Positions 7,956 through 42,793 of a stretch of DNA of 60,173 nt are shown here, one piece after another. This DNA comes from a bacterium UBP8_UBA6595 (lineage in GTDB: Bacteria > Margulisbacteria > Marinamargulisbacteria > UBA6595). The translations under genes were made by a program, and so were the position numbers. Position 1 is the stretch's first letter, and each line of letters opens with the position of its first letter. The stretch spans positions 1 to 60,173 of the forward strand of contig DJIL01000012.1 of assembly GCA_002433595.1 (NCBI GenBank), given 5' to 3'. Under the pieces are notes generated by a model. It ran no database searches, was not told the DNA's origin, and saw only the letters and a list, made by a program, of their open reading frames with translations.

Positions 7956-8585
7956 ATGACACAGAAAGTAATAGGTATTGTTGATTATGGCGCTGGAAAT
8001 TTACATAGCGTTGAAAAACTATTTCAGTATTTAGGGTATGCCACTCGGCGAATTGGTACGGTATCGGATTTGGTCACTAGTGATACCCTGATTTTGCCAG
8101 GGGTTGGCGCGTTTGGTTATGGCATGGAACAATTAAATCAACGGGGATTTTCAGGCCCAATTATAGAGCATATTCAGGCTAAAAAACCCTTTATTGGTCT
8201 ATGCTTAGGGTTTCAGTTATTGTTTGAAAGCAGTGATGAATCCCCCGGAGTTACTGGTCTAAGCGTTTTTCGGGGGCACGTGCAGTCTATGGATAATTCG
8301 GTTCAGGTTGTTCCGCATATGGGGTGGAATCAGTTAGACTATGCGGACCAACAGCCATATTATTTACAGGGGATTGATCGTCCATTGGTTTATTTTGTTC
8401 ATAGTTACTGTGTTCATGGCATTGATGTCTCAATTGGCCATACTCAAACCGAGTACGGATCCCACTTTGTGTCTAGCGTGTGGACACCAACCGTATTTGC
8501 TGCGCAGTTTCACCCTGAAAAAAGTGGGCAGGTGGGGGTTCAGTTATTGCGCAATGTAATGCATTACTTTGCACATTTAAAGTGA
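7956..8585 (+). CDS. hisH: imidazole glycerol phosphate synthase, glutamine amidotransferase subunit
   Basis: IGIVDYGAGNLHSV, LPGVGAFG, the catalytic Cys in GLCLGFQLL, and QFHPEKS are all present. Confidence 0.92.
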   Translation: MTQKVIGIVDYGAGNLHSVEKLFQYLGYATRRIGTVSDLVTSDTLILPGVGAFGYGMEQLNQRGFSGPIIEHIQAKKPFIGLCLGFQLLFESSDESPGVTGLSVFRGHVQSMDNSVQVVPHMGWNQLDYADQQPYYLQGIDRPLVYFVHSYCVHGIDVSIGHTQTEYGSHFVSSVWTPTVFAAQFHPEKSGQVGVQLLRNVMHYFAHLK

Positions 8586-9487
8586 GTTTTTGCGACAGTG
8601 TGCAGCTGGTCTCGCCCCAATGAAGCAAGGACTTGGGCGTACGCAGTCTGAATGTGTGTGGCACCTTTGGGTAATACAATTCCAATGTGGTTAGATAACG
8701 CCTGAAGGTCGGTGATAAATTGATTGCGCGCAAGAATACTGGCGGCGGCTACGGCGATATTGGATTCAGCCCGAGTGGCTTGATGAATAGTGATATGGGG
8801 GATTCGGGCGCGTCCCAACTGGTGCAATAGCGTTGGTTTGGCAAATTGATCGGATAACGCAACTTTACACGATGTTTCGTGGCTCAGGTGCTCAATAACA
8901 TCAATATGACACGTGGCGAGTAATGTATTTAAATTAGATGTTTCGGGGTAACGCTTGTTGTAGCGTTCGGGCAATAAACTGAGTATAGTATGGGGGCAAT
9001 GCGCTTTGATCCAGTTTGCCAATTGTGCAATTTGGGTGTCATTGAGTCGCTTACTATCGGTAACCCCACGAGACTGAAGCGCGGGGGCTGTATCGGGGGT
9101 GACATAGGCAGCAGCAGTGACCAGTGGGCCAAAGAAATCCCCCTTTCCGGATTCGTCAACGCCAATTAAAGGCAGTGGACACTCACGAATAGACGGAGTG
9201 AGATTGGTATTTAGAGGGGCGGCCACTCCGATTTGTCTGGGTGTGATTGTGACGGCTAAGGGGGATAGCCAGGTATGCAGTTGTTTCTGCTGCTCGAATG
9301 ATTTTACCTGAGACAAGTCGATGCTGGGTCCCTTTTTTCCAAAAAACAACCGAATAATCACGGTGCTTTGATTGAATAGGCACTCAAGTTGATGCCCATA
9401 TTGAATTTTTTTTTGGCTTTTAATTTCAATTGAATTATGCTTTAATAAGCGTGTAGTTGCTAATATTAAATTACAATTTTCATTCAT
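8564..9487 (-). CDS. rnhC: ribonuclease HIII
   Basis: A roughly 90 aa N-terminal domain is followed by the RNase HII/HIII catalytic motif GVDESGKGDFFGPLV. The 307 aa size fits RNase HIII. Its 3' end overlaps hisH by 22 nt (convergent). Confidence 0.82.
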   Translation of the reverse strand: MNENCNLILATTRLLKHNSIEIKSQKKIQYGHQLECLFNQSTVIIRLFFGKKGPSIDLSQVKSFEQQKQLHTWLSPLAVTITPRQIGVAAPLNTNLTPSIRECPLPLIGVDESGKGDFFGPLVTAAAYVTPDTAPALQSRGVTDSKRLNDTQIAQLANWIKAHCPHTILSLLPERYNKRYPETSNLNTLLATCHIDVIEHLSHETSCKVALSDQFAKPTLLHQLGRARIPHITIHQATRAESNIAVAAASILARNQFITDLQALSNHIGIVLPKGATHIQTAYAQVLASLGRDQLHTVAKTHFKCAK

Positions 9488-9523
9488 TTATTCAAGTGTA
9501 CAGAACAGAGAATACATAAGTCC

Positions 9524-11293
9524 ATGAATATTCCAGTTTTATTTGAATTTTCTACCATGTTTGTTGCGGGGTTATTTGCTCAGTGGGTATCGTGGAGAAT
9601 GCGGTTACCTGCTATTTTGCCCTTGCTCCTCATTGGCTTATTGGTAGGTCCCGTTTTGGGGATACTGCATCCCGATCGCCTAATGGGAGATTTGCTATTT
9701 CCCTTTGTGTCATTATCCGTAGCGATTATATTATTTGAAGGGGGGTTGAGTTTAAAAATAAAAGATATTCATGGGCTGGGCAATGTGGTTTGGAATTTAA
9801 ACACAATCGGGGTTTTAGTTAATTGGGTTATTATTGCAATTAGTGCGTATCTGTTTTTAGATATGACCGGGTCGTTAAGCACAATTTTGGGGGCTATTTT
9901 AGTAGTGACAGGCCCCACGGTTATCGGCCCTTTGTTAAAGCATGTGCGTTTGGATACCGATTTGGGGTCAACCTTGCGGTGGGAAAGTATTATTATCGAC
10001 CCAGTGGGCGCCGTCATAGCTGTATTAGCCTTTGAATGGGTGTTTCTAAGTGAAGTTGGGGCGATGGTGTCGTATTCGGTTGTGTTTTTGTTGATGACAC
10101 TACTAGTGGGTGTTGGATTGGGGTTGTTGGGGGGGGGCTTTATTATGATGCTGCTTAAACGGGGGTGGGCACCAGCCTATTTGCATTCGTCATTAACGTT
10201 GGCCACCGTGATGGCTGTGTTTGTAGTCTCAAATTTTATTCAATTAGAGTCCGGGTTACTAAGTGTAACTGTGATGGGATTAATACTAGCGAACCAAAAC
10301 CAAGTGAAAATCCAACATATCTTACGGTTTAAAGAAGATGTAACCTTGTTGCTAATATCGGTGCTGTTTGTTATGTTAGCGGCACGTATTTCGTTTTATG
10401 ATTTAGTGGGGTACACCTCATGGAACACACTGTTTTTTTTAATTGGTGTGGTGTTTGTGGCTCGGCCTTTGGGGGTCTTTTTATGTACCATTGGGTCTCG
10501 CTTGACGTGGCGACATAAAGTGTTCATGAGTTTGACAGCCCCGCGCGGGATTATCGCAGCAAGTATTGGGTCATTATTTGCATTAAAGTTAAGTCAGTAT
10601 GGCATTGCAGATGCTGAACAACTGGTGTTTTTTACGTTTATTGTTATTTTTTTTACAGTGGCTCAGTCGGGGTTGTTTGCTGGGTATTTAGCCAAATGGC
10701 TGGGGGTTACACGGCCGCATTTTTACGGCGTTTTAATTGCGGGGTCCAATGCGTTGTCTCGGTCTATTGCGACACAATTAATTAATCAAAAAATTGATGT
10801 GTTATTGGTTGATACCAATCAGCAATCGATTAATGAAGCCCGTGTTCATGGGATTCCATGTATCGAAGCCAGCATTTTAGACGACAGTATTTTAGATGAG
10901 CTGGAAGATCGAAAAATTGGCCGTTTTCTGGCCGTTACCTCTAATGACGACTTAAATGTATTGGCGGTTAGAAAGTATCGGTCTGTATTTGGGCGAAACA
11001 AAGTATACCGGTTGTTTCCTCAAGATGTGACCCATCAACAGCATTTAGAAATTACCACATTATTTTCAGCGGGCATGACGTATACCCAATTGGTCAATTA
11101 TATGATTTCTGGTTACTCAGTGGTGGCTATTCATCTCAATACGGGTGAGCAGCTTAATGATATTTTGGAGCAATACGATGCGCCGGTTATCCCATTATTT
11201 TTTGTATCAAAAAATTATGAGCTGTATATTTTTTCTGAGGGGAATAGCCCTCCACGATTGCCCGATATGACGTTAATTGCATTGGTGCCATGA
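9524..11293 (+). CDS. CPA1-family cation/proton antiporter with C-terminal RCK/TrkA domain
   Basis: About 11 TM segments form the N-terminal part (LPAILPLLLIGLLVGP...). The C-terminus has the Rossmann-like VLIAGSNALSRSIATQL...VLLVD. Confidence 0.82.
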   Translation: MNIPVLFEFSTMFVAGLFAQWVSWRMRLPAILPLLLIGLLVGPVLGILHPDRLMGDLLFPFVSLSVAIILFEGGLSLKIKDIHGLGNVVWNLNTIGVLVNWVIIAISAYLFLDMTGSLSTILGAILVVTGPTVIGPLLKHVRLDTDLGSTLRWESIIIDPVGAVIAVLAFEWVFLSEVGAMVSYSVVFLLMTLLVGVGLGLLGGGFIMMLLKRGWAPAYLHSSLTLATVMAVFVVSNFIQLESGLLSVTVMGLILANQNQVKIQHILRFKEDVTLLLISVLFVMLAARISFYDLVGYTSWNTLFFLIGVVFVARPLGVFLCTIGSRLTWRHKVFMSLTAPRGIIAASIGSLFALKLSQYGIADAEQLVFFTFIVIFFTVAQSGLFAGYLAKWLGVTRPHFYGVLIAGSNALSRSIATQLINQKIDVLLVDTNQQSINEARVHGIPCIEASILDDSILDELEDRKIGRFLAVTSNDDLNVLAVRKYRSVFGRNKVYRLFPQDVTHQQHLEITTLFSAGMTYTQLVNYMISGYSVVAIHLNTGEQLNDILEQYDAPVIPLFFVSKNYELYIFSEGNSPPRLPDMTLIALVP

Positions 11294-30091: not shown

Positions 30092-31494
30092 ATAAAGTAA
30101 AGACTGATGTTGTTGTATTAGGGGCCGGCCCTGGGGGCTATGCAGCTGCATTTTATGCGGCAGATTTGGGGCTCAATGTTGTTTTAGTTGAAAAAGAACC
30201 CGCTTTGGGAGGCGTATGTCTAAATCGAGGGTGTATTCCATCCAAGGCGTTGTTGCATGCTACAGATGTGTATCATTCTGGACAGCAGGCGAGTGATATG
30301 GGAATTCAATTTGGTAAAGCTACGTTGGATTTAGATCAGCTTCGAACCTGGAAAAATGGGATTGTTGATCGATTGGGTGGCGGGGTGCGTCAACTGGCAG
30401 CCACACGCAACGTTACGGTTATAGCGGGTCGCGGGTATTTCGAAGGGTCTCAGCTGTTGCGTGTAGAGACCGAATCCGGTCAGCAATTTATAGACTATGA
30501 TAAGGCCATTATTGCCACGGGGTCTCGGCCCGCAATGCCACGTGCGTTTGATTTGGGTAGCCCACGCGTTATGACATCAACAGAAGCCTTAGATATTCAA
30601 CAGATTCCGGATAGTTTATTGGTTATTGGGGGTGGTTACATTGGTATGGAGCTAGGGATTGTGTACGCACGGATGGGTACATCCGTTAGTGTGGTTGAAG
30701 CCACGGAGCAATTGTTGTCAGGGGCAGACCCAGACTTGGTTCGTCCGGTTGAAAAAATGGCAGAACGTATGTTTTCAAGCATTCAGAAGTCCGTTAAAGT
30801 AAAAGAGATGGCAACCAAAAGCAAAAAAATTGAAGTTGTATTGGATGACAAGGGAACACTCAGTACGCATGCTTTTGATTCAGTGTTAGTGTCTGTGGGT
30901 CGTGCCCCCAATACAGATGCGTTAGGTTTAGAAAATACAGACGTTAAGTGCGATGAAAAAGGGTATATTAACGTGCATATGTATCAGCAAACTGACGATC
31001 CAAATATTTTAGCGATAGGGGATTGTGCCGGTGGGCTTTTACTGGCCCATAAAGCGAGTAAAGAGGCGCGCATTGCGGTAGAGGCCTTAACGGGTCGTCA
31101 ACCCACGACAGAATTCACAGTTCCGGCAGTTGTATTTACAGACCCAGAGTTAGCATGGGTGGGTTTAACAGAAGTAGAGGCAAAGGCCAGCAAGAAAGCA
31201 ATAAAAGTGGCTAAATTTCCATGGACCGCATCCGGCCGAGCGATGACTTTAGGCCGTACTGATGGTATGACAAAACTTATTGTTGAGCCAGATACACACA
31301 GAGTATTGGGGGTAGGTATTGTGGGTCCACATGCGGGAGATTTAATTAGCGAGGCGGCGATGGCCATTGAAATGCAGGCGACTGTTGAAGACATTGCGCA
31401 TATTGTTCATCCGCACCCCACATTATCAGAAAGCATGTTGGAAGCTGCCGAGGTTTTTTTGGGTCACTGTACTCACGTGGCTAGTGCACGATAA
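30088..31494 (+). CDS. lpdA: dihydrolipoyl dehydrogenase (E3)
   Basis: It has GAGPGGY, the redox-active disulfide CLNRGCIPSK, and HPHPTLSE near the C-terminus. The start overlaps the aceF stop as ATGA. Confidence 0.93.
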   Translation: MNKVKTDVVVLGAGPGGYAAAFYAADLGLNVVLVEKEPALGGVCLNRGCIPSKALLHATDVYHSGQQASDMGIQFGKATLDLDQLRTWKNGIVDRLGGGVRQLAATRNVTVIAGRGYFEGSQLLRVETESGQQFIDYDKAIIATGSRPAMPRAFDLGSPRVMTSTEALDIQQIPDSLLVIGGGYIGMELGIVYARMGTSVSVVEATEQLLSGADPDLVRPVEKMAERMFSSIQKSVKVKEMATKSKKIEVVLDDKGTLSTHAFDSVLVSVGRAPNTDALGLENTDVKCDEKGYINVHMYQQTDDPNILAIGDCAGGLLLAHKASKEARIAVEALTGRQPTTEFTVPAVVFTDPELAWVGLTEVEAKASKKAIKVAKFPWTASGRAMTLGRTDGMTKLIVEPDTHRVLGVGIVGPHAGDLISEAAMAIEMQATVEDIAHIVHPHPTLSESMLEAAEVFLGHCTHVASAR

Positions 31495-31516
31495 AGCACC
31501 CGCTAGACCCATATTT

Positions 31517-32506
31517 TTGTATGCAGCCACGATTGGGTTGGTATGGTTTTCCCTGATTAACTTATGGCCCTTCGTGGCATCCTTTTTTGAAGCGGTTGTA
31601 TTATTTGTTTTATTTAATTCACTGTATTTAAAATCCGAACGACTGATAGGGTCACGCATGGTGGCCGCTATGAGTGTTATTATGCTTACGTTTGTTATTA
31701 TTGTTGTGCCATTATTATTTGTTATTCCAACCTTGATTTCAAATGTTCCTCGTTTTTATAAAAGTTTGATGTGGTTTTTAGGGCAGCCTGTAGAGTGGCC
31801 AGGCTTTTTGCAGGTATTTGTTCAATCGAATACGTTTTTAGTGAACCAACTGTTGCCGGGCGCTGTGGGGCAACTGGTGTCTAAAAGTGGTGATTTTGTA
31901 TTGGCGGCAATTACCAACGTTGGTGGCTTTTTTATTAATATTATTATTATGTATGTTATTTTGTTTTTTGCTTTTACGGAGCAAAAACGATGGGTTCCGG
32001 GGGTTTTGTCGTATTGGCCGAGCAAGCATATTTATCTAGATAAAATCACTGATATTTTCCGAAAAACAATCCGGTCATTTGTTATTAGCACTGTGATTGT
32101 GGCTTTATTTCAAGGATTATCGTTGGGTGCTATGCTATTTATTACTGTAACCCCCAATGCATTTATTTTAATGTTAATTGCGTGTGTGTTGTCATTTGTT
32201 CCCATGATTGGGGTTCCATTCATATGGATTCCGGTGGCTGTGTACCATGTTATTCAGCATCAGCCAATTCAAGCGGCTATTATCTTGGTTATGGGGGTAT
32301 TAATTAGTAATCTCGACAACTTAATCCGGCCATGGGTGCAAAAACGTATTGGAAAAATTCACCCATTAACTACAATTTTTGGTATTATTATTGGGCTTCC
32401 GTTGTTTGGCATTTCAGGATTAGTCATTGGTCCTGTTATGATTGGTTTAACAGCCAGTCTGTCAGGGTTCGCATTGGAGCAATACAATCAAGACTTAATT
32501 GTTTAA
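31517..32506 (+). CDS. AI-2E (PerM/YhhT) family transporter
   Basis: It is a polytopic protein with an AI-2E-like layout. There is no ATG between the lpdA stop and the first TM segment, so I propose the in-frame TTG at 31517. The track start at 31367 would overlap lpdA by 128 nt. The start is uncertain. Confidence 0.7.
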   Translation: MYAATIGLVWFSLINLWPFVASFFEAVVLFVLFNSLYLKSERLIGSRMVAAMSVIMLTFVIIVVPLLFVIPTLISNVPRFYKSLMWFLGQPVEWPGFLQVFVQSNTFLVNQLLPGAVGQLVSKSGDFVLAAITNVGGFFINIIIMYVILFFAFTEQKRWVPGVLSYWPSKHIYLDKITDIFRKTIRSFVISTVIVALFQGLSLGAMLFITVTPNAFILMLIACVLSFVPMIGVPFIWIPVAVYHVIQHQPIQAAIILVMGVLISNLDNLIRPWVQKRIGKIHPLTTIFGIIIGLPLFGISGLVIGPVMIGLTASLSGFALEQYNQDLIV

Positions 32507-32537: not shown

Positions 32538-34160
32538 ATGAATCGAGAACTCTTGGTTACTAGCGCGCTGCCTTATGCCAACGGCCCCCTGCATTTGGGG
32601 CATATGGTTGAATATATTCAAACAGATATTTTCGTTCGCTTTCAGCGTAGTGTTGGCCAAGTGTGTCATTATGTGTGTGCCGATGATGCTCATGGGACGC
32701 CAATTATGCTAAGTGCTCAAAAAAAAGGCGTTTCCCCGGAGGATTATATTCAAGAAATATACCATAATCACTGTGCTGATTTTGAGCGGTATCAGATCCA
32801 ATTTGATTACTATGGTCAAACTCATTGTGATGCGAATCAGGCACGCAGCGAGGCGTTTTTTAAGTTGGCAACCGAGGCAAATAAAATATACAAAAAAACC
32901 ATTGTTCAAATGTACTGTAAGGACTGCTCGTTATTTTTGCCCGATCGATTGGTTAGAGGTACGTGTCCACACTGCGGGACTTCGGATCAATATGGCGATG
33001 TATGTGAGCAGTGTGGGGTGACCTACAAACCGAATGATCTGATTGAGCCTCGGTGTGCGCAGTGTGGCGTTATACCGGTTATGAAAGATAGTGAACATTA
33101 TTTTTTTTCATTGCAGTCGTCTCAAGAATTTCTCATGCAGTGGCTGAACGCATCAGCGTTTCGTGATGATGTTAAAAATAAACTGAGTGAATGGTTTGAG
33201 GTAGGGCTTCAAGATTGGGATATATCGCGAGAAGCCCCCTACTTTGGATTTAAAATACCGGGTTCAGATCATTATTTTTATGTGTGGGTAGATGCCCCAT
33301 TTGGGTACATGGCCATGACGGATCAATTGGCAAAAGCGAATCCAGAGCAATCAGGTTTGCGGGACATTTGGTTTAAAGATACGGTAGAAATACATCATTT
33401 TATTGGTAAAGATATTTTATATTTTCATGGACTATTTTGGCCGGCAATGTTGTCAGTAATGGGCGCTAACTTACCCACTCAATTGCATGTTCATGGTTTT
33501 TTGACGGTTAATGGAGAGAAAATGTCTAAAAGCCGCGGTACATTTGTTTTAGCCAATACGTTCTCAGAACGCTATGAACCAGAATTACTCCGGTACTATT
33601 ATGCTTGTAAACTGGCTGGAGATATGAGGGACCTTGATTTTAATGAAATGGATTTTATTCATCGAATTAACGCCGATGTTTTGGGTAAATTTGTCAATAT
33701 TGGTAGCCGAACGGGATCGATTTTAAAAAAATCATTAAACAATCAACTATCAACACCAGATGCTTCTGGAGCTGCTGTCATAGCGTCAATTCTGGATCAA
33801 AAAAACACAATTTATGAGTATTATGATCATTTAAATTATAGTAAGGCAATGTCGGTAATTATGCGACTCTCAGAGCAGGTTAACGGGTATATTCATAATT
33901 CTGAGCCCTGGGCTTTGGTGAAGGATAACCCCAGGGCAGCTCAAGCCGTGTGCACAACAGCCATTCATGCTTGGCGATACTTGGCTATTTATTTGCAACC
34001 AGTCTTGCCCGGGCTTACCGGCAAGATACAAGGTATTTTAGCGATTGACTCATTAAATTGGGAATGTCTAGCTCAGCCACTACCCAATGGCCACATAATT
34101 TCCAATTATTATCATATTATTAAACGTATTGATGGTCCAACAACCAATTTATCGGGCTAA
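32538..34160 (+). CDS. metG: methionine--tRNA ligase (no C-terminal tRNA-binding domain)
   Basis: The HIGH-type motif is PLHLGH and the KMSKS motif is KMSKSRG. Zn knuckles occur at CPHCG...CEQCG...CAQCG. Confidence 0.93.
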   Translation: MNRELLVTSALPYANGPLHLGHMVEYIQTDIFVRFQRSVGQVCHYVCADDAHGTPIMLSAQKKGVSPEDYIQEIYHNHCADFERYQIQFDYYGQTHCDANQARSEAFFKLATEANKIYKKTIVQMYCKDCSLFLPDRLVRGTCPHCGTSDQYGDVCEQCGVTYKPNDLIEPRCAQCGVIPVMKDSEHYFFSLQSSQEFLMQWLNASAFRDDVKNKLSEWFEVGLQDWDISREAPYFGFKIPGSDHYFYVWVDAPFGYMAMTDQLAKANPEQSGLRDIWFKDTVEIHHFIGKDILYFHGLFWPAMLSVMGANLPTQLHVHGFLTVNGEKMSKSRGTFVLANTFSERYEPELLRYYYACKLAGDMRDLDFNEMDFIHRINADVLGKFVNIGSRTGSILKKSLNNQLSTPDASGAAVIASILDQKNTIYEYYDHLNYSKAMSVIMRLSEQVNGYIHNSEPWALVKDNPRAAQAVCTTAIHAWRYLAIYLQPVLPGLTGKIQGILAIDSLNWECLAQPLPNGHIISNYYHIIKRIDGPTTNLSG

Positions 34161-34963
34161 CCTAAAATTTTCATGGCTTCTTTATAGGCCGTATCAATGG
34201 CTTTAAATCCAGTATTTTGAACCATGGTTAATAGGCGGTTAATATTAACCATTTCAATATTTAGCGCAGCGGGATTCACATTGGATAATTCGCGCTGCTG
34301 ACCAAAAACAGTACTGGTAATGCTACCGTTCGGATTGTTAGCCGCTTCAATTTTATACGGTTCTCCCGTAATTCGGGATGCCCGATAAGACAAAATATCT
34401 TCAATGTCTAACTGTTCGGGATTGTGAAATTCAGCGACAGCCAATTGATATAATGGGGTGGGTGTATCAGAGTTTATATTAGACACAACCGTTCCATCTT
34501 CTAAAATACCAACGTTGGGGCTATCCGTAATATCTAAGGGAACCAATGATTCGCTTACTGTGCCATTTACAATTTTAAACCCCAACGCTTTTCGGCCGCG
34601 AATCCCGTAAAACACACGATTATCTTGTTGAATAGCGGAGAATTCCCCCGCACGAGTGAAAATACGTTCATTAGTACTGGATTGGGTGACAAATAAAGCA
34701 TTGCCTTTAATAGCAGCATCATTGACAGCCCCTGCACCCAAATCGCCTTGACCAAAGTTAAGCTTAACCGCAGCCATCACCCCCCCGCTTTTATCGGGAA
34801 TCATGGTCGTAATCATTTCCTTAAAACCAGAGGTGGACATATTACTAGCATTGCGCTGTAATATGTCAATTTGCTGCTGTGCCATAACCAAGCTTTGGGA
34901 TGATTGTGCGAGCATTGATGAAAAAGTGGCCATTGGCATTGTGGATGTGTTGTAACTATTCAT
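34157..34963 (-). CDS. flagellar basal-body rod/hook family protein (FlgG/FlgE-like, 268 aa)
   Basis: The N-terminal LQRNASNMSTSGFKE fits the axial-protein motif (ANNxANxNTxGFK). The C-terminal RELSNVNPAALNIEMVNINRLLTMVQNTGFKAIDTAYKEAMKIL fits the rod C-terminal motif. A strong AGGAGG SD lies 7 nt upstream. Its 3' end overlaps metG by 4 nt. Confidence 0.7.
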   Translation of the reverse strand: MNSYNTSTMPMATFSSMLAQSSQSLVMAQQQIDILQRNASNMSTSGFKEMITTMIPDKSGGVMAAVKLNFGQGDLGAGAVNDAAIKGNALFVTQSSTNERIFTRAGEFSAIQQDNRVFYGIRGRKALGFKIVNGTVSESLVPLDITDSPNVGILEDGTVVSNINSDTPTPLYQLAVAEFHNPEQLDIEDILSYRASRITGEPYKIEAANNPNGSITSTVFGQQRELSNVNPAALNIEMVNINRLLTMVQNTGFKAIDTAYKEAMKILG

Positions 34964-34975
34964 GTGGGTTTCCTC

Positions 34976-36775
34976 CTATACATTTGTACAAATAGACCGA
35001 TACATATCTGGGCGTATGTGCCCAGTTTCTGACTGACGGTGCCCAGGTTCTGTGGACGTGATACGCGCAAGTACACGCTGTAGTTGAGCGAGGCGTTCCA
35101 TTAACGCATGGCGTACAGAGGGCGGAAAGTTTGCGTCGTCTAGCATGCCGTAAATGCTGGCGCATTCTAACTCAACAATGGGGTATAGGGCACGATTCGC
35201 GCGAAGAATTCGGATGGATAAATTATGGGTACTAATGGGAACCCCCAAGCGTTGTAAATTTCGAATAACACTTTTTATTTTTTGATTGTTATTTTCCCAA
35301 TCAGTACCGGATTCAGTATGAAAAGATGCTTTTTCTAATAAAGCTTCATCGAGCATGGCCTGTAATTTTTGAATGGCTTGATGATTGGCTTGTGTGGTCA
35401 GCATGCGTTCAGTTTCCGTGTTATAAACACCCAATTTAATGCCGGTTCGTTTATCAAAAAAAAGCTTAAATTGTGCCATGAGACCAGCCATAAAAGATCC
35501 TGAAATGGCTAAATGCATTAAGTTGGCACGAATTCGATCCAGTATAATATTGGATTCGTCGTCTTGGGTGTATTGATACGCGTGGGAGTGATGGTCGGAT
35601 TCATTCGAGTGATCAGAGTCTCCAAAATCCAGTATCATATGCCCAAGGTCAAACAGATCAATAGCGGTTGTTTTATCAAACAAGGGATTATTTTGATCCG
35701 TAATAACCCCCAATTTTTTTGCATTTTCTAATAATTGATCCTGTAGTTGCTTAGGGTCTGACGACTGTCCCGAGGTGTTGGAGTCAGACGTGTGCTGTTT
35801 AACTATTGTCTGTAAGGCATAGAGTACTTCATCTTTCGCTTCATCTAAAATAGACGCATGCATGGTGTCAATTTCATCAGGTTGTCCCAGCTTTCTGGAC
35901 GATTTTAACGAATTAACTACAGATATGTAGCTGGATTCTAAAACTTTAGCATTCATAGTATCGGATACGGTTTTATTATTAATCGCAGACAAAAAGCCTT
36001 GAATAACCAATTGCTTCAGGTTTTGCTTTATACTTTTTTTCATTGCATTTTGAATAATTGACTGGCTAATAGATACTAAAGAATCAATGTCAGATTCACT
36101 AGCGCCTAATGCTATCATATCGGCCTTACTAATTGTATAGGATTTTTTAGTGCTTGCGTCATGATTGGCGGCGTTTTTTTGAATAGGATTTAAGTTAAAG
36201 ACACTTGCAACATAGTGCTGAGCCACGGCTTTAGCTGTTGTTTCCCCTGTTTTGAGACTGTGTTTGAGTTGTTTAATATTAGCTTGGGCTTGTTGATTAG
36301 CCATAATATCTAAATTAGCATTAATAGTGGGTGTGGGACTGGATAGTGTGCTAAGTGATTGCGTTAAACTAGCGTCGGTTTGCTTCGAAACGCTGAGCCG
36401 GTTTGTTTTTTTTCGTGTAGCTAATTGTTGATTCATTAACTGGTTTTTAATGGAGTGCTCAATTAATTGGGTTAAGCGCTGGATTTCCACTTTTAAGTAG
36501 TGATTATCCATATTTTTTTTATACATGCTTACGGAATCTTTGTGATTCGTGTATAGCAATTTTGACTGCTGGAAGACTTGGTCCAACTCATGCATGTTTT
36601 TTTGTACATGCTCAGCGTTTTTCATAGCTAATTGCTCTAATATTTTTTCACGCTGCTGTTTTTCAAGTTGTTGTTTTTCAAGTAGTTCTTGAACACGTTT
36701 TTCATCGTCATTTTCTATAGTGGATGGTTCAGTTTCATCCACTATAGAAATAGAATGGGGATTAATTGTACTCAC
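34976..36775 (-). CDS. hypothetical protein (599 aa), coiled-coil / Gln-Lys-Glu rich
   Basis: The GTG start overlaps the upstream stop as GTGA. It contains the LEKQQLEKQQREKILEQL coiled coil, the acidic/His patch DFGDSDHSNESDHHSHAYQYTQDDE, and a hydrophobic stretch LAISGSFMAGLMAQFKLFF. I recognise no family motif. Confidence 0.6.
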   Translation of the reverse strand: MSTINPHSISIVDETEPSTIENDDEKRVQELLEKQQLEKQQREKILEQLAMKNAEHVQKNMHELDQVFQQSKLLYTNHKDSVSMYKKNMDNHYLKVEIQRLTQLIEHSIKNQLMNQQLATRKKTNRLSVSKQTDASLTQSLSTLSSPTPTINANLDIMANQQAQANIKQLKHSLKTGETTAKAVAQHYVASVFNLNPIQKNAANHDASTKKSYTISKADMIALGASESDIDSLVSISQSIIQNAMKKSIKQNLKQLVIQGFLSAINNKTVSDTMNAKVLESSYISVVNSLKSSRKLGQPDEIDTMHASILDEAKDEVLYALQTIVKQHTSDSNTSGQSSDPKQLQDQLLENAKKLGVITDQNNPLFDKTTAIDLFDLGHMILDFGDSDHSNESDHHSHAYQYTQDDESNIILDRIRANLMHLAISGSFMAGLMAQFKLFFDKRTGIKLGVYNTETERMLTTQANHQAIQKLQAMLDEALLEKASFHTESGTDWENNNQKIKSVIRNLQRLGVPISTHNLSIRILRANRALYPIVELECASIYGMLDDANFPPSVRHALMERLAQLQRVLARITSTEPGHRQSETGHIRPDMYRSICTNV

Positions 36776-37710
36776 TGAACAACCCCAAGGGTTTTCAATC
36801 CCAATAAACGTTGATTTTTTTCGGCTTCCTGACTGCTAATTCGATGGGTATGCAATTGGTGCTCGAGCTGACGATTTAAATAATGACTCCGGGTTTTTAT
36901 TTTGTTGAAATAAATACCGATTCGGGCGTTCTTTTTTTCTAAAACATGACGAGGGTCAGGGTTAAAATCTGAAATCCGAACTTGAATACCTTCTGTTGTA
37001 TCTGAATTGTACCAATAGATTAATTGGTTATCTGTTTGTGTTTGTTCATCAAGAAAACTTGCGTGAATACGAACGAGTTGTTCCAGTTGAATGCGGGTTA
37101 TTCTTTCTGGCGTATACCAATTGTTTTGACCCAGCTTTTCCATGTGTATCGACAGCTCCTGACGAACTTTTTTTAGTGAACGCGTCAGTTTTCTTTGTTT
37201 CTTATGGTTTGAAACAATACACAACAATTCAATGTTATATTCATTCTCTTCAAATTTAGCTTTGTTTTCTTCAATAGATTTTTTAATAATATCGCGACGA
37301 CGCTTATCCAAATCACTGGCATCAACGCCAGCCGCCAATAGCACAGCGAGTAGGCCGTTTAGCTTCGCTAAGCTATAGTTAGCGATTAATACATTGGGCG
37401 ACTTGGACTGCATAACCATATGGTCATATTCAGACAATAACCGATCCACTTTAGAGGGGTCAAAAACTATTTGAATGGCCGGCCGCAGCGCTTTCCCAAC
37501 ATACTCAATAATACTGGAGAAAAAACTAGGGGCAGGGGCATCTAATTGTGTAGATTCCCATTTAAAAGCAACGCTAAATTCGACAGTATCTCGAAAATAT
37601 GAACGCGGGTTGCTTTCTTTTGTGCTTTCCTGGTTTTTCTTAGAGGATTGAGTAACTGACGGAGCGGACGATTGGTTGGCCACTTGTGTAGATTGATGGG
37701 GTTCTAGCAT
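36772..37710 (-). CDS. hypothetical protein (312 aa)
   Basis: The start overlaps the upstream stop as TAATG. The N-terminal 35 aa are Ser/Gln-rich and appear disordered. The central region is charged and helical. I recognise no family motif. Confidence 0.6.
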   Translation of the reverse strand: MLEPHQSTQVANQSSAPSVTQSSKKNQESTKESNPRSYFRDTVEFSVAFKWESTQLDAPAPSFFSSIIEYVGKALRPAIQIVFDPSKVDRLLSEYDHMVMQSKSPNVLIANYSLAKLNGLLAVLLAAGVDASDLDKRRRDIIKKSIEENKAKFEENEYNIELLCIVSNHKKQRKLTRSLKKVRQELSIHMEKLGQNNWYTPERITRIQLEQLVRIHASFLDEQTQTDNQLIYWYNSDTTEGIQVRISDFNPDPRHVLEKKNARIGIYFNKIKTRSHYLNRQLEHQLHTHRISSQEAEKNQRLLGLKTLGVVQ

Positions 37711-38045
37711 TAGTTCCCAGCAGCAGCTTTACTAGTATTTTCAATAATTTGCGTGGTTTTTTGAAGCATGACTGATATAATCTCACTGCCTCGCTCATAA
37801 AACTCTTCTTGAAACGTAATGGCGCGTAGTGTTTCGGGGTTTCCAGGAGACACGGGCCCCAAGCCTTCGACAAATACCAACAAATCATCAGAATCATCGT
37901 TATTTAAATTTCGAACGGTTGCATCCACGACCCCCGATTGAAAACGAAGTAATTCACTAAAATATGTCTTAGCAAGATCGAGTTCGTTGCTATTATGCTT
38001 CAGTTGAGGGTTAAATTGGAGAACTGGTATAGACACTTCAGACAT
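37710..38045 (-). CDS. hypothetical small acidic protein (111 aa)
   Basis: I prefer the ATG at 38045 (MSEVSIPV...), which has GGGAG 9 nt upstream. The track start is a GTG at 38051. The size and acidity resemble secretion chaperones or FlaG-type proteins, but only weakly. Confidence 0.55.
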   Translation of the reverse strand: MSEVSIPVLQFNPQLKHNSNELDLAKTYFSELLRFQSGVVDATVRNLNNDDSDDLLVFVEGLGPVSPGNPETLRAITFQEEFYERGSEIISVMLQKTTQIIENTSKAAAGN

Positions 38046-38130
38046 GTGCACACTCCCATTTGGTTATATTAATCATACTATAATATATATCGAAGCAATT
38101 CCGAGAAATCATGCATGCTATATAAACGAA

Positions 38131-39451: not shown

Positions 39452-40975
39452 ATGTCCATAACTCAATTAGTTCGACCGTCACTCGACGGACTCATTCAGT
39501 GTATTAAACCGTTGGGGGTTTTAGATAGTATTGCTTCAGTATTAGGCTGGGATGAAGAAACATGGATGCCACCGAACGGTATTCATCGACGGTCCGAACA
39601 ATCCGCCGTGTTGGCCCAAATTACCCATGAGCGATGGGTTTCAGATGAATTTCGTAGGGTGCTTTCACCACACGTTGATTTGAATACAGGGGTGGTTAAC
39701 CCCGATTATACACCCATAGAGTCACGCTTGGTGGCTGAAACGTATCGCCAATGGCGAAAAAAAACCGCCATACCAACGGCATTTGCGGCACGCTGGGCAA
39801 CACTGACTTCAGAAGCCCAGCATTGCTGGCAAACCGCGCGCAATCAAAACGATTATGCGCAGTTTGCCCCCCATTTGGATAAAATAGTAACCGCTGTTCG
39901 TGAAAAAGTGCAGTATCTTGGGTATTCGGATCATCCGTACGATGCCTTGCTGGATTGTTTTGAGCCGGGTATGACCACGCAGCGATTAACGACTATATTT
40001 GACCCTCTTAAGCAGGGAATTCGCCAAAAGCTAGCGCAATGCTCAGGCGGTAATCGCCCGTATATTTCAGGGGTATTTGATACCAATAAGCAATGGGATC
40101 TGGGCGTTATGATTTTGAAAAAGATGGGGTTTGATTTTAATCGTGGACGTCAAGACCAGTCCGCACATCCGTTTACTACAACATTTGGGTTAAATGATGT
40201 GCGCATTACCACTCGATTTAGCGATACTGATATTTTAGAGGGGTTGTCAAGCACAATTCATGAAGGAGGGCATGCTCTATATGAGCAGGGGTTGGATCCT
40301 CAATGGGCGGATACCCCTTTGGGTTCGGCGTGCTCATTGGGTATTCATGAAAGTCAATCGCGGCTATGGGAAGTTATGGTCGGCCGTCACGCAGCATTTT
40401 GGCAGGGCATTCACCCCCATATGCAATCATTGTTTCCAAATAACGTGGGTAGCAGGGATCATTCAACGCTATATCGCTACGTGAATCATGTGTCGCCTGG
40501 CCCTATTCGAGTATCCGCCGATGAAGTTAGCTACAATATGCATATTCTTATTCGGTTTGAGCTAGAAAAACAAATGGTACAGGGGTCTATTGATGCGATG
40601 GCTTTGCGGGATTTATGGAATGAGTATTATTACAATGAACTGGGCGTCCGTGTTTGCGACGATCGAACGGGTATTTTACAAGATGTGCATTGGTCAGCGG
40701 GACTTATTGGGTACTTTCCAACCTATGCACTGGGAAACTTGTACAGTGTAATGCTATTTAATGCCGCAAAACAAGCCATTCCAAACTTAGAAACTAAAAT
40801 TATGGCGCTTGACTTCTTGCCATTAACGCGTTGGCTTAATCAAACGATCCATAGGTATGGGAATGTATATGCGTCGGAAACGCTTATACAAATGGCTACA
40901 GGGGAATCGCTTAGCGCAAGCCCATTTTTAAACTATCTAAGTGATAAATACCCAATTATTGATTCACCCGGATAA
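39452..40975 (+). CDS. M32 (Taq-type) metallocarboxypeptidase
   Basis: The zinc motif is IHEGGHALYE. GIHESQSRLWE and a DVHWS context are present. The start is either the ATG at 39452 or the GTG at 39434. Confidence 0.88.
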   Translation: MSITQLVRPSLDGLIQCIKPLGVLDSIASVLGWDEETWMPPNGIHRRSEQSAVLAQITHERWVSDEFRRVLSPHVDLNTGVVNPDYTPIESRLVAETYRQWRKKTAIPTAFAARWATLTSEAQHCWQTARNQNDYAQFAPHLDKIVTAVREKVQYLGYSDHPYDALLDCFEPGMTTQRLTTIFDPLKQGIRQKLAQCSGGNRPYISGVFDTNKQWDLGVMILKKMGFDFNRGRQDQSAHPFTTTFGLNDVRITTRFSDTDILEGLSSTIHEGGHALYEQGLDPQWADTPLGSACSLGIHESQSRLWEVMVGRHAAFWQGIHPHMQSLFPNNVGSRDHSTLYRYVNHVSPGPIRVSADEVSYNMHILIRFELEKQMVQGSIDAMALRDLWNEYYYNELGVRVCDDRTGILQDVHWSAGLIGYFPTYALGNLYSVMLFNAAKQAIPNLETKIMALDFLPLTRWLNQTIHRYGNVYASETLIQMATGESLSASPFLNYLSDKYPIIDSPG

Positions 40976-41774
40976 TATTTTTCATCATTCGGATGCCCCG
41001 TTTGGCAGAATAGGACGAAGAGAGATAAATATGCCTATAGATGCCACGCGTATCGGGGGGTAATGATTTGGGAACAGAGGCTCCTTCATAAAACCCTTGT
41101 TTAAGCAATCGTTCGTGAGGTGGAACGCTTGTAATAAATTCAGGATCCGTGTGTAGCCGTATGCCGTCAACAATTTCCAACGCATTTAGATTTGATACAG
41201 ATACAATGCGCAAGGTAGCAATGGGCCCGCTATTTCCAATAATTACACCAGTGTGCGAAATATAAATATCTGAATTGGGCAATTGAATAGGCGTTAAGTC
41301 TTCGCTTAGCACGCGATGTTGGCCAGATACAGTGATGAGATAGCTTGTTTTTGGCTCTTTTTTGAATCGACCATCGCGCATTAAAAACCGATTCCCGGCT
41401 ACGGATTCAACAAGAAAGTAGCCTTGGGGATTTTGAATGTACACATCATAATCGCGTTTCGATGCCACGGGCGGGCCTGGTACATGCAACGGGTATGTTT
41501 TGAGTTGGACGAGTCCATTTTCTAGCGTTGAATAAGGCTTTACCCGCTTGTATCCAGGGGTCATCTTATTTATGGAGTATAGGGTCCATACCATAACCCC
41601 TTCACCGGCCATTTTCATTGCATTTTGGTTGACCGCCAACCCTCTATCTAATACGGGTTGATTGTTGCCGGAATCGGGCACAATGGATCGGTTTCGAATG
41701 ACATCCTCTTGGGTCACGATTTGGCCAAATACCGACAAACTTAGAACTAAACCCCACAGGCATTGGTTTATCAT
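40956..41774 (-). CDS. flagellar rod family protein (FlgF/FlgG-like) with hydrophobic N-terminal extension
   Basis: YSINKMTPGYKR matches the N-terminal motif. DVYIQNPQGYFLV...FLMRDGRFKK compares with DVAIKGQGFF...YTRDGSF in FlgG, and LLKQGFYEGASV compares with QGYVETSNV. The first roughly 20 aa (MINQCLWGLVLSLSVFGQIV) resemble a signal peptide. TGGTATACT lies 7 nt upstream of the ATG. Confidence 0.68.
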   Translation of the reverse strand: MINQCLWGLVLSLSVFGQIVTQEDVIRNRSIVPDSGNNQPVLDRGLAVNQNAMKMAGEGVMVWTLYSINKMTPGYKRVKPYSTLENGLVQLKTYPLHVPGPPVASKRDYDVYIQNPQGYFLVESVAGNRFLMRDGRFKKEPKTSYLITVSGQHRVLSEDLTPIQLPNSDIYISHTGVIIGNSGPIATLRIVSVSNLNALEIVDGIRLHTDPEFITSVPPHERLLKQGFYEGASVPKSLPPDTRGIYRHIYLSSSYSAKRGIRMMKNIIRVNQ

Positions 41775-41809
41775 AATCTCAAGTATACCAAATTATTAAC
41801 GACTCAATC

Positions 41810-42652
41810 TCAAAGCGCATAGCCCATGTACACCGTATAGTGCATGGATGATTTTTTTAGCGTAGCGGTTTGCGATTCAATTGGCATCCGAACGGTTGCT
41901 GAAGGGGTATAGCGCGCAACTAGGCCAATAAATACAGAAGTGGACACTCGATACAGTCCGGCGGTTTCAAGATACCCTTGCGATTGGGTAGCTGTTGAGG
42001 ATAGGGTGGCTAATTGGGGGGGGGCCCCTGATTTCACTTCAGTGTCACCAGTGCTATCGCTATTAATCACTAGTTTTTGACGGCCATTATTTGCAAAATT
42101 CCCACGCAGGGAGTAGTGGGTCCACAAGGCACCTGCGCCATAATATAGGGAAACGGAGGGGGTTAAGTCAATGTAGCGGCGCAGGCCTATCCGCCATTGC
42201 GATAGTGTGACACGCACGGTTGGTAAAATAGGCATTGGGTTACCCATAGGTTCTGGGGGTTCTTGTTGGAAATTATTATTCAGGAGAAATGTTAAATCAG
42301 CCAATCGTTGATCAAACATGCGGGAATTTGTGTTTGGTATATCCCGAAATGAATACCCTATAGCCAAATTAATGGGTAGAAGTGGGAGGGCATAGTCCCC
42401 GTCAATAGTGACTAAAACAGAGTGGTTTATTGGGTGTTGAATTGATTGCCCCAACGTATCGTTATCTTCGTCTGAAAAAATGTAATGGTGATCTTGAAGT
42501 GCTTCAAGATCACTGCTGTTACCGGGTGAGTCGGTAATCACGTGCATACCATTTGGGTTGGACAACGGGATAGAACCTTGTAACCCTGCATGCTGAATGC
42601 CCACTTGAATATGCCCACGATCCGTTGAGAATTGGGCAGTTGTGGGCACCAT
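41810..42652 (-). CDS. beta-strand-rich hypothetical protein, possible lipoprotein/OMP
   Basis: The called ORF has no signal peptide. The in-frame upstream codons (42653-42715) encode ...IIYTIPNNLYLWLCIGSIVAC, a signal-peptide-like stretch with an IVAC lipobox, but contain no ATG, GTG or TTG. The true start is unresolved. Confidence 0.45.
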   Translation of the reverse strand: MVPTTAQFSTDRGHIQVGIQHAGLQGSIPLSNPNGMHVITDSPGNSSDLEALQDHHYIFSDEDNDTLGQSIQHPINHSVLVTIDGDYALPLLPINLAIGYSFRDIPNTNSRMFDQRLADLTFLLNNNFQQEPPEPMGNPMPILPTVRVTLSQWRIGLRRYIDLTPSVSLYYGAGALWTHYSLRGNFANNGRQKLVINSDSTGDTEVKSGAPPQLATLSSTATQSQGYLETAGLYRVSTSVFIGLVARYTPSATVRMPIESQTATLKKSSMHYTVYMGYAL

Positions 42653-42793
42653 GCATGCAACGATACTGCCAATACATAGCCATAGATATAAATTATTTGG
42701 AATAGTATATATAATATAATTAGTTAAATTAAATGAGCAATAGGTCGCCCGTCACGAGCTTTGCCTGACCGAATGATTCATGTGGTTGTCTAG

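Follow-up and report, generated by a model that had tools for sequence, protein, structure and literature searches.

A gene pair of Margulisbacteria and Saganbacteria joined to a divergent flagellar axial-family protein in a strain-variable marine operon

The DNA considered here is a stretch of 60,173 nucleotides (nt), hereafter the window, that corresponds to positions 1 to 60,173 of contig DJIL01000012.1 (GenBank assembly GCA_002433595.1, forward strand) from the bacterium UBP8_UBA6595 (Margulisbacteria; Marinamargulisbacteria; UBA6595); the contig is also present in Tara Oceans and other marine assemblies. It contains an operon of four minus-strand genes whose products have 111, 312, 599 and 268 amino acids (aa), in that order of transcription. 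Part of this operon is of a known kind, the flagellar axial family, to which the 268-aa protein belongs; what is new is an uncharacterised gene pair, encoding the 312- and 599-aa proteins, which is found over two candidate phyla and is joined here to the axial protein. These phyla, Margulisbacteria and Saganbacteria, both uncultured, are siblings of the Cyanobacteria, and to our knowledge their cell biology is essentially unknown. We tentatively favour the explanation that the operon is a flagellum-associated, lineage-specific module that is exposed and diversifies fast, and several alternatives are weighed below together with the evidence that bears on them.

An initial annotation of the window, made from its sequence alone, described the operon as three orphan proteins coupled to a stand-alone flagellar rod/hook-family protein. 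The word orphan proved wrong for two of the three. An exhaustive profile search of the 599 family recovered 106 representative proteins that carry its C-terminal core, with E-values as low as 1e-72 for proteins from beyond the marine clade, and the named members belong to Margulisbacteria and Saganbacteria; one close homologue is labelled Candidatus Marinamargulisbacteria by NCBI (GCA_028096945.1). The neighbourhood of the 599-family gene was examined in eleven non-marine loci. The gene directly upstream of it matches a hidden Markov model (HMM) of the 312 family in nine of them (L012, L014, L015, where it is split, L017-L019 and L022-L024; E=1e-12 to 1e-29; phmmer clustering was also run), and in these nine loci the two genes are adjacent and co-directional, with no axial gene after the pair. 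The marine 312-aa protein corresponds to the ~250-aa gene of the non-marine loci fused with the ~65-aa gene that follows it. Judged from these profile matches and this gene order, the 312- and 599-aa genes represent, in the marine clade, an unnamed pair of ~250-aa and ~530-aa genes found across Margulisbacteria and Saganbacteria.

The pair is itself part of a larger, conserved cluster of unannotated genes, in which a ~110-aa open reading frame (ORF) is followed by a 550-1370-aa protein, the pair, a 235-650-aa protein, small ORFs and a giant protein of at least 1100 to 4319 aa; a glycosyltransferase of family 2 with tetratricopeptide repeats (GT2+TPR) is sometimes found between the two genes of the pair. 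In some of the nine loci there are also GT2+TPR and CgeB-like glycosyltransferases, and an EF-hand protein resembling the type III effector family XopAW (E=3e-8) is encoded in one. No match to flagellar Pfam families was found among 83 cluster proteins. The 111-aa protein was compared with the ~110-aa ORFs of the non-marine clusters; the match is collinear, and at E=0.005 and an hhalign probability of 7% it was too weak, so that a relationship between the two was set aside. The composition of most non-marine clusters, namely glycosyltransferases with small and giant proteins and no flagellar genes nearby, is the first argument for a different explanation of the marine operon. According to it, the 312/599 pair and the 111-aa protein are a non-flagellar system of Margulisbacteria and Saganbacteria (an envelope, glycan or giant-protein apparatus), to which an ordinary axial gene came to adjoin in streamlined marine genomes, diverging there by hitch-hiking in recombination. 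We consider this explanation somewhat unlikely, for reasons that emerge from the conservation of the operon described below. It is decidedly unlikely, in our estimation, that both phyla possess an undescribed multi-protein apparatus (the ~110- and ~65-aa proteins, the 250+530-aa pair, and the 550-1370-aa and giant proteins) whose reduced marine form recruited axial-family proteins as a strain-variable surface structure independent of the motility flagellum.

The 599-aa protein consists of a variable N-terminal half, with coiled-coil and low-complexity sequence, and a conserved C-terminal half; the conserved part spans residues ~220-599 in the marine clade and a core of ~400-575 across the family. 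Both strings singled out initially, LEKQQLEKQQ and DSDHSNESDHHSH, are present in it. The single hydrophobic stretch that had also been pointed out is not a membrane helix, which was ruled out by a maximum 19-residue Kyte-Doolittle value of 1.39 and by the charged character of the same segment in the wider family. Sec signals and membrane helices are lacking in all four operon proteins, and the 312- and 599-aa proteins are soluble, with disordered polar N-termini. AlphaFold2 (AF2) models of both are all-helical: the 312-aa protein is modelled with 8 helices at a predicted local distance difference test (pLDDT) score of 68.6, and the 599-aa protein at a low-confidence pLDDT of 50.9.

Scanned as single proteins against Pfam and NCBIfam, the 111-, 312- and 599-aa proteins match no family, and 66 members of the 599 family match no family in Pfam. 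The C-terminal Flg_hook domain of FliK (PF02120) is absent at E<=1 from the 312- and 599-aa proteins and from the 66 family members. Models of FlgD, FliD_N/C, Flg_bb_rod plus Flg_bbr_C and Flagellin_N/C from Pfam and NCBIfam gave no match in the 312- and 599-aa proteins, and no FlgD, FliD, FlgK, FlgL or flagellin domain was detected in the 66 family members and the 83 cluster proteins scanned singly. Profiles of the 312 and 599 families compared with PDB sequence profiles returned nothing meaningful, and a Foldseek search of the two AF2 models, which are weak, found no match in the PDB at E<0.3. Additionally, PADLOC and PHROG profiles matched neither the four operon proteins nor the cluster homologues. 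For the 111-aa protein, no Pfam or NCBIfam match to FlgN, FliS, FliT or FlaG was obtained; its likeness to these proteins is limited to size and acidity (isoelectric point, pI, 4.4), both of which are compatible with the idea, put forward initially, that it is a chaperone. The initial annotation had seen no flagellin, FliK, FliD or FlgD signature in the two larger proteins; profile and structure searches assign none of the three proteins to FliK, FlgD, FliD, FlgK/L, FlaG, FlgN or another known family.

The 268-aa protein matches NCBIfam TIGR03506, the FlgE/F/G subfamily model, with E=1.2e-18 and 67.9 bits, narrowly missing the curated cut-off of 70.25. The alignment to the NCBIfam flgF model (E=1.8e-17) takes in residues 23-243 of the protein and positions 6-215 of the model's 218, and the protein scores far under the cut-offs of the FlgF, FlgG and FlgE equivalog models; for comparison, ordinary short hook/rod proteins of other metagenomes reach 350 bits on the same models. 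In Pfam the D1 domain PF22692 is recognised below threshold (E=0.0017, 18.9 bits, with a gathering score of 27), and neither the N-terminal rod family PF00460 nor the C-terminal family PF06429 is found at E<=1. HMMER aligns residues 25-50 to residues 12-37 of FlgG and the sequence up to ~245 to the C-terminal part of FlgG. A family profile built from seven orthologues retrieves from the PDB FlgG (2.3e-8 over residues 64-245), FlgE (1e-5) and FlgF (5e-3). On the strength of these end-to-end model alignments and PDB profile matches, the 268-aa protein is clearly recognisable as a very divergent homologue of the FlgE/F/G axial proteins with their end-to-end architecture. Its homology to this family is clear although the curated level of membership is narrowly missed, and it cannot be called FlgE, FlgF or FlgG individually. 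The initial annotation had credited it with both terminal motifs of axial proteins; these are visible in HMM alignments only, the Pfam terminal families being undetected.

In its nearly end-to-end alignments with the FlgF and FlgG models, the 268-aa protein appears to have the N-terminal helix of the N-x-S-T-x-GFK type, the D1 domain and the C-terminal helix region of the FlgE/F/G subfamily, and its size is that of rod proteins and short hooks, such as the ~264-aa Bacillus-type hook protein modelled by NF009278. Unlike them, it scores under every curated cut-off and fails to reach the Pfam terminal families; the partners of its gene in the transcription unit are three genes of no flagellar appearance, in place of flgB/C, flgD or flgG, and the gene lies inside a strain-variable cassette. 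The ratio of nonsynonymous to synonymous substitution rates (dN/dS) of the gene is ~0.07, similar to that of neighbouring housekeeping genes, indicating purifying selection. For all four genes, which are conserved in relatives, dN/dS lies between 0.06 and 0.23, and on this evidence all four ORFs are genuine genes.

The four-gene linkage proposed for the operon extends to its relatives, with order and coupling found in L007, L009 and L105, all of which have orthologues of the 111-aa protein. In L007 and L009 the order 111-312-599-268 is kept within conserved synteny. L105 is more distant, its 111-, 312-, 599- and 268-aa proteins being 60, 41, 37 and 61% identical to those of the window respectively; it retains the gene order, the GTGA overlap and a Shine-Dalgarno (SD) spacer with AAGGAGA. 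The genes around its operon are others: DinG takes the upstream place of citrate synthase and a signal-peptide protein the downstream place of metG, which indicates that the four genes move as a block. The attachment of the axial gene by an SD spacer of 12-18 nt, both in the window and in this distant relative with other flanks, argues against the non-flagellar system with a fortuitously adjoining axial gene. The cassette is present in every marine-clade contig seen. At 8499-10065 of L008 (GCA_028096945.1) a single junction cuts short both a 599-family gene (382 aa) and the neighbouring PRA-CH hisI-like gene (94 of 157 aa), and genes for the 111- and 312-aa proteins are absent; the junction reflects either a real rearrangement or a break of the assembly at the variable cassette.

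A comparison of L007 with L009 revealed that the operon is an island of divergence. The flanks (the pyruvate dehydrogenase genes, metG, citrate synthase and heptosyltransferase genes) have 93-98% nucleotide identity, and the operon, from the citrate synthase stop to the end of metG, has 55-77%, with boundaries at the operon ends and with dS saturated inside. Amino-acid identities between the two are 56, 66, 56 and 72% for the 111-, 312-, 599- and 268-aa proteins, compared with 94-99% for metG, citrate synthase and E3. For the 111-aa (83%) and 268-aa (79%) genes L009 is nearer to the window than to L007, indicating that the whole cassette was replaced by recombination. The island begins in the intergenic region upstream of the operon and takes in the whole 268-aa gene, and such a boundary is a further point against a merely adjoining axial gene. 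On the other hand, the rates of change inside the cassette fit the non-flagellar explanation: between the window and L009 the 268-aa gene (79%) evolves like the housekeeping genes (77-89%), with the low dN/dS given above, whereas the 312- and 599-aa genes (63 and 54%) are far more divergent and are the fastest-evolving parts of the cassette (omega 0.17-0.2).

Sharp, cassette-like divergence between conserved flanks, together with three upstream proteins that all lack annotation, could also point to some other variable accessory island, either an anti-phage defence locus or the remnant of a mobile element, which would account for the divergence between strains. This is highly improbable given the absence of PADLOC and PHROG matches and of any integrase, transposase or repeat boundary; moreover, the GC content at third codon positions (GC3) is the same as in host genes, the pair is vertically conserved, with its gene order unchanged, in both candidate phyla, and the marine-clade contigs display no presence/absence variation of the cassette. 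With regard to composition, the three upstream genes had been described as AT-rich by eye. Their lower GC is real (0.39-0.41 as against 0.45 for the window) and carries no signal of horizontal transfer: GC3 is 0.35-0.36 for the 111-, 312- and 599-aa genes, 0.366 for metG and 0.354 for GroEL, so that the AT-richness stems from an amino-acid composition rich in Q, N, K and S and not from a foreign origin, and horizontal transfer was ruled out as its source.

Direct reading of the sequence confirmed the chain of four minus-strand genes at the coordinates first given, its position between metG and citrate synthase, and its junctions, which are the overlaps TAATG and GTGA and a 12-nt AGGAGG spacer (Table 1). 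The citrate synthase gene lies 85 nt upstream of the operon on the same strand. At the other end metG is convergent with the 268-aa gene and overlaps it by 4 nt at the stop codons (34157-34160), leaving no room for a terminator between the two genes, and a scan found none there. A consensus scan of the upstream intergenic region detected no strong sigma-70 site. The upstream regions of the window, L007, L009 and L105, otherwise divergent, have in common the string CGATAT (38087-38093 in the window), which resembles the core of the sigma-28 -10 element; a sigma-28 promoter was nevertheless rejected, as there is no -35 TAAA element and the window shows no excess of the heptamer.

Table 1. Features of the four-gene operon and of the second FlgE/F/G-like locus (window coordinates)
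Feature	Position	Strand	Remarks
Upstream intergenic region, citrate synthase stop to 111-aa gene	38046..38130	(-)	Presumed promoter; GGGAG Shine-Dalgarno before ATG
111-aa gene, first of operon	37710..38045	(-)	ATG start; acidic, pI 4.4; stop overlaps next start (TAATG)
312-aa gene	36772..37710	(-)	Basic all-helical protein; N-terminal 60 residues disordered
599-aa gene	34976..36775	(-)	GTG start overlaps 312-aa gene stop (GTGA); stop TAG
Spacer between 599-aa and 268-aa genes	34964..34975	(-)	12 nt; AGGAGG Shine-Dalgarno overlaps TAG stop of 599-aa gene
268-aa gene, last of operon	34157..34963	(-)	ATG start; divergent FlgE/F/G-family flagellar axial protein
272-aa protein gene	40956..41774	(-)	Weak FlgE/F/G D1 similarity; 6 kb from operon; in second divergence island
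280-aa protein gene	41810..42652	(-)	Adjoins 272-aa gene; no family match (Pfam, NCBIfam, PADLOC, PHROG)

A second association with flagellar genes was found in a lake clade. In L020 and L021, two metagenome-assembled genomes (MAGs) labelled Marinamargulisbacteria, and in the metagenome contig L025, a 599-family gene and one unannotated gene adjoin a flagellar operon with the order FliK-FlgD-Flagellar_put-FlgE-FliL-FliN-FliO-FliP-FliQ-FliR-FlhB. The FlgE of this clade matches the Pfam terminal families clearly, and L021 has a separate Flg_hook-bearing ORF in addition to the 599-family gene. In L020 (MAG AM_bin-3330; 8079-10324, minus strand) the FlgE homologue is split into 573 + 190 aa, and it is a single 748-aa ORF in L021, so the split is probably a frameshift or an assembly error. 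The 599-family module therefore touches flagellar genes in two different arrangements, the marine operon and the lake clade, and this independent second juxtaposition again counts against the non-flagellar system. The canonical operon of the three lake loci implies that the phylum includes flagellated members, in agreement with surveys that list Margulisbacteria among the phyla with flagellins and FlgV (PMC7018530; PMC11607428). We found no paper on flagella or motility in Marinamargulisbacteria.

The claim that the axial gene stands alone was not upheld, given this FliK-to-FlhB operon in MAGs labelled Marinamargulisbacteria and a second FlgEFG-like ORF within the window itself. The initial annotation had listed fliE, flgB/C, MS-ring, export-gate, motor and flagellin genes as absent from the window; no other Pfam-recognisable flagellar gene is present, and this weaker ORF, at 40956-41774 on the minus strand, had been missed. 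Its 272-aa product matches PF22692 (E=0.0024), the NCBIfam FlgF model (E=2e-5) and TIGR03506 (E=3e-5), and has the motif NKMTPGYKR in the place of the axial N-T-x-GFKR. Its N-terminus is signal-peptide-like and conserved, and the protein is 73% identical in L009. A profile of the 272-aa family found no match in the PDB, which makes the axial assignment of this protein tentative. The neighbouring 280-aa protein has a homologue in L007 with a classic signal peptide, and most of its gene is deleted in L009 and L008. A second divergence island between L007 and L009, beside the lipopolysaccharide (LPS) heptosyltransferase genes, covers the genes of the 280- and 272-aa proteins; it extends over ~4500-6780 of L009, equivalent to ~39500-42700 of the window, and shows both divergence and a change of gene content; in L007 it holds an extra glycosyltransferase-9 gene and a DUF6165 gene.

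These observations bear on a further explanation, namely that the marine clade lost its flagellum and that the two FlgEFG-like proteins are repurposed relics which work with the 111-, 312- and 599-aa proteins in a structure unrelated to motility, for instance in attachment or secretion. Consistent with it, the 268-aa protein has diverged much further than the canonical FlgE of the lake relatives, the conserved signal-peptide-like N-terminus of the 272-aa protein is atypical for axial proteins exported by a type III pathway, no other flagellar gene lies in the 60 kb, and a metagenome scan with a lake-clade FliP query and exact peptide seeds yielded, among the best 80 of >579 matches, no FliP locus resembling the marine clade in tetranucleotide signature or export-protein similarity. 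Because that scan relied on exact peptide seeds and took in the best 80 of >579 matches, the absence of a clade-like FliP is weak evidence. Flagellar genes are often scattered, and the search covered ~60-80 kb of the marine clade's genome. Additionally, strong purifying selection acts on the 268-aa protein, whose N-terminus is typical of axial proteins, and axial proteins that lack a Sec signal depend on a type III export gate for their passage out of the cell. Altogether we judge the loss of the flagellum with repurposing of its relics to be unlikely.

The preferred explanation, a flagellum-associated module, rests on the coupling to the axial gene that persists across genomic contexts, on the second, independent neighbourhood with a core flagellar operon, on signal-less proteins with disordered N-termini preceded by a small acidic first gene, and on hypervariability of the cassette type. 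In such a module the 312- and 599-aa proteins would share with the axial protein the flagellar type III route of export, and the small acidic 111-aa protein may serve as their chaperone. Once outside, the two proteins would make up or decorate a lineage-specific, exposed portion of a flagellum or of a structure derived from one, and pressure from phages or grazers would drive the replacement of whole-cassette alleles by recombination in the conserved flanks. The initial annotation had suggested a lineage-specific flagellar accessory module or a repurposed rod-protein system; this proposal stands insofar as the linkage is conserved and the upstream proteins are without known flagellar identity, and its terms orphan and stand-alone need the revision given above.

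Several results weigh against a flagellum-associated module. Homology of the 111-, 312- and 599-aa proteins to flagellar components was not found with Pfam, NCBIfam, PDB profiles or Foldseek, and the structure models of the 312- and 599-aa proteins are of moderate or low confidence. Eight of the eleven non-marine loci have no flagellar gene within their visible flanks, and the flagellar operon of the lake clade runs convergently to the 599-family module, without co-transcription of the two. In the 60 kb window the genes other than those discussed are housekeeping genes; no flagellar export gene of the marine clade occurs in the ~60-80 kb covered, and none could be tied to the clade elsewhere. 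Extension of the sequence past the two ends of the window brought nothing further. The region upstream of the operon has no match to a sigma-28-type TAAA-N15-CGATA promoter. Finally, the export and surface exposure of the 312- and 599-aa proteins are steps that we infer.

The AI-2E family transporter gene near the operon (window 31367-32506, plus strand) has a start that differs among assemblies, giving products of 282, 340, 343 or 379 aa, and the longest of these ORFs shares sequence with the end of the dihydrolipoyl dehydrogenase gene that precedes it.

Compared with known systems, the operon resembles flagellar operons of the chaperone-plus-substrate kind, such as flgN-flgK-flgL and fliK-flgD-flgE (the latter order is observed in L021), in its layout: a small acidic protein is encoded first, two larger proteins that lack signals and have disordered N-termini come next, and an axial protein closes the series, with translational coupling throughout. 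It differs from them in that no sequence or fold similarity of its upstream proteins to FlgN, FlgK, FlgL, FliK or FlgD was found, and the module does not replace FliK, FlgD and FlgE, canonical forms of which are present in the lake relatives besides the 599-family gene. Lineage-specific accessory structures of the flagellum, often helical or TPR-rich, include the disk and cage proteins of Campylobacterota and the collar proteins of spirochaetes. The proteins described here are likewise clade-restricted, have no homologues elsewhere and are found near flagellar genes; unlike those structures, they are known from their genes alone, and their association with flagellar genes occurs in two clades only. 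The cassette also recalls hypervariable surface loci that are replaced by recombination in conserved flanks, among them O-antigen and capsule loci and flagellin or flagellar glycosylation islands. It has in common with these a sharply bounded block of 55-77% identity between flanks of 93-98% and saturated dS, and LPS heptosyltransferase genes near the cassette border a second variable island. Unlike such loci, the marine cassette contains no glycosyltransferase or recognisable surface protein, and its gene content is constant, only the alleles being different.

This work defines a conserved gene pair within a larger unannotated cluster that spans Margulisbacteria and Saganbacteria. The pair touches flagellar genes in two clades and, in the ocean, is combined with an axial protein in a cassette that varies between strains. 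If the cassette is associated with the flagellum, it would add a lineage-specific layer to flagellar architecture, and selection by phages or grazers would be likely to act on it in a lineage of the marine plankton. If it is not, it would mark an otherwise unknown apparatus that captured axial proteins. On either reading, the genes described here provide concrete and testable candidates.

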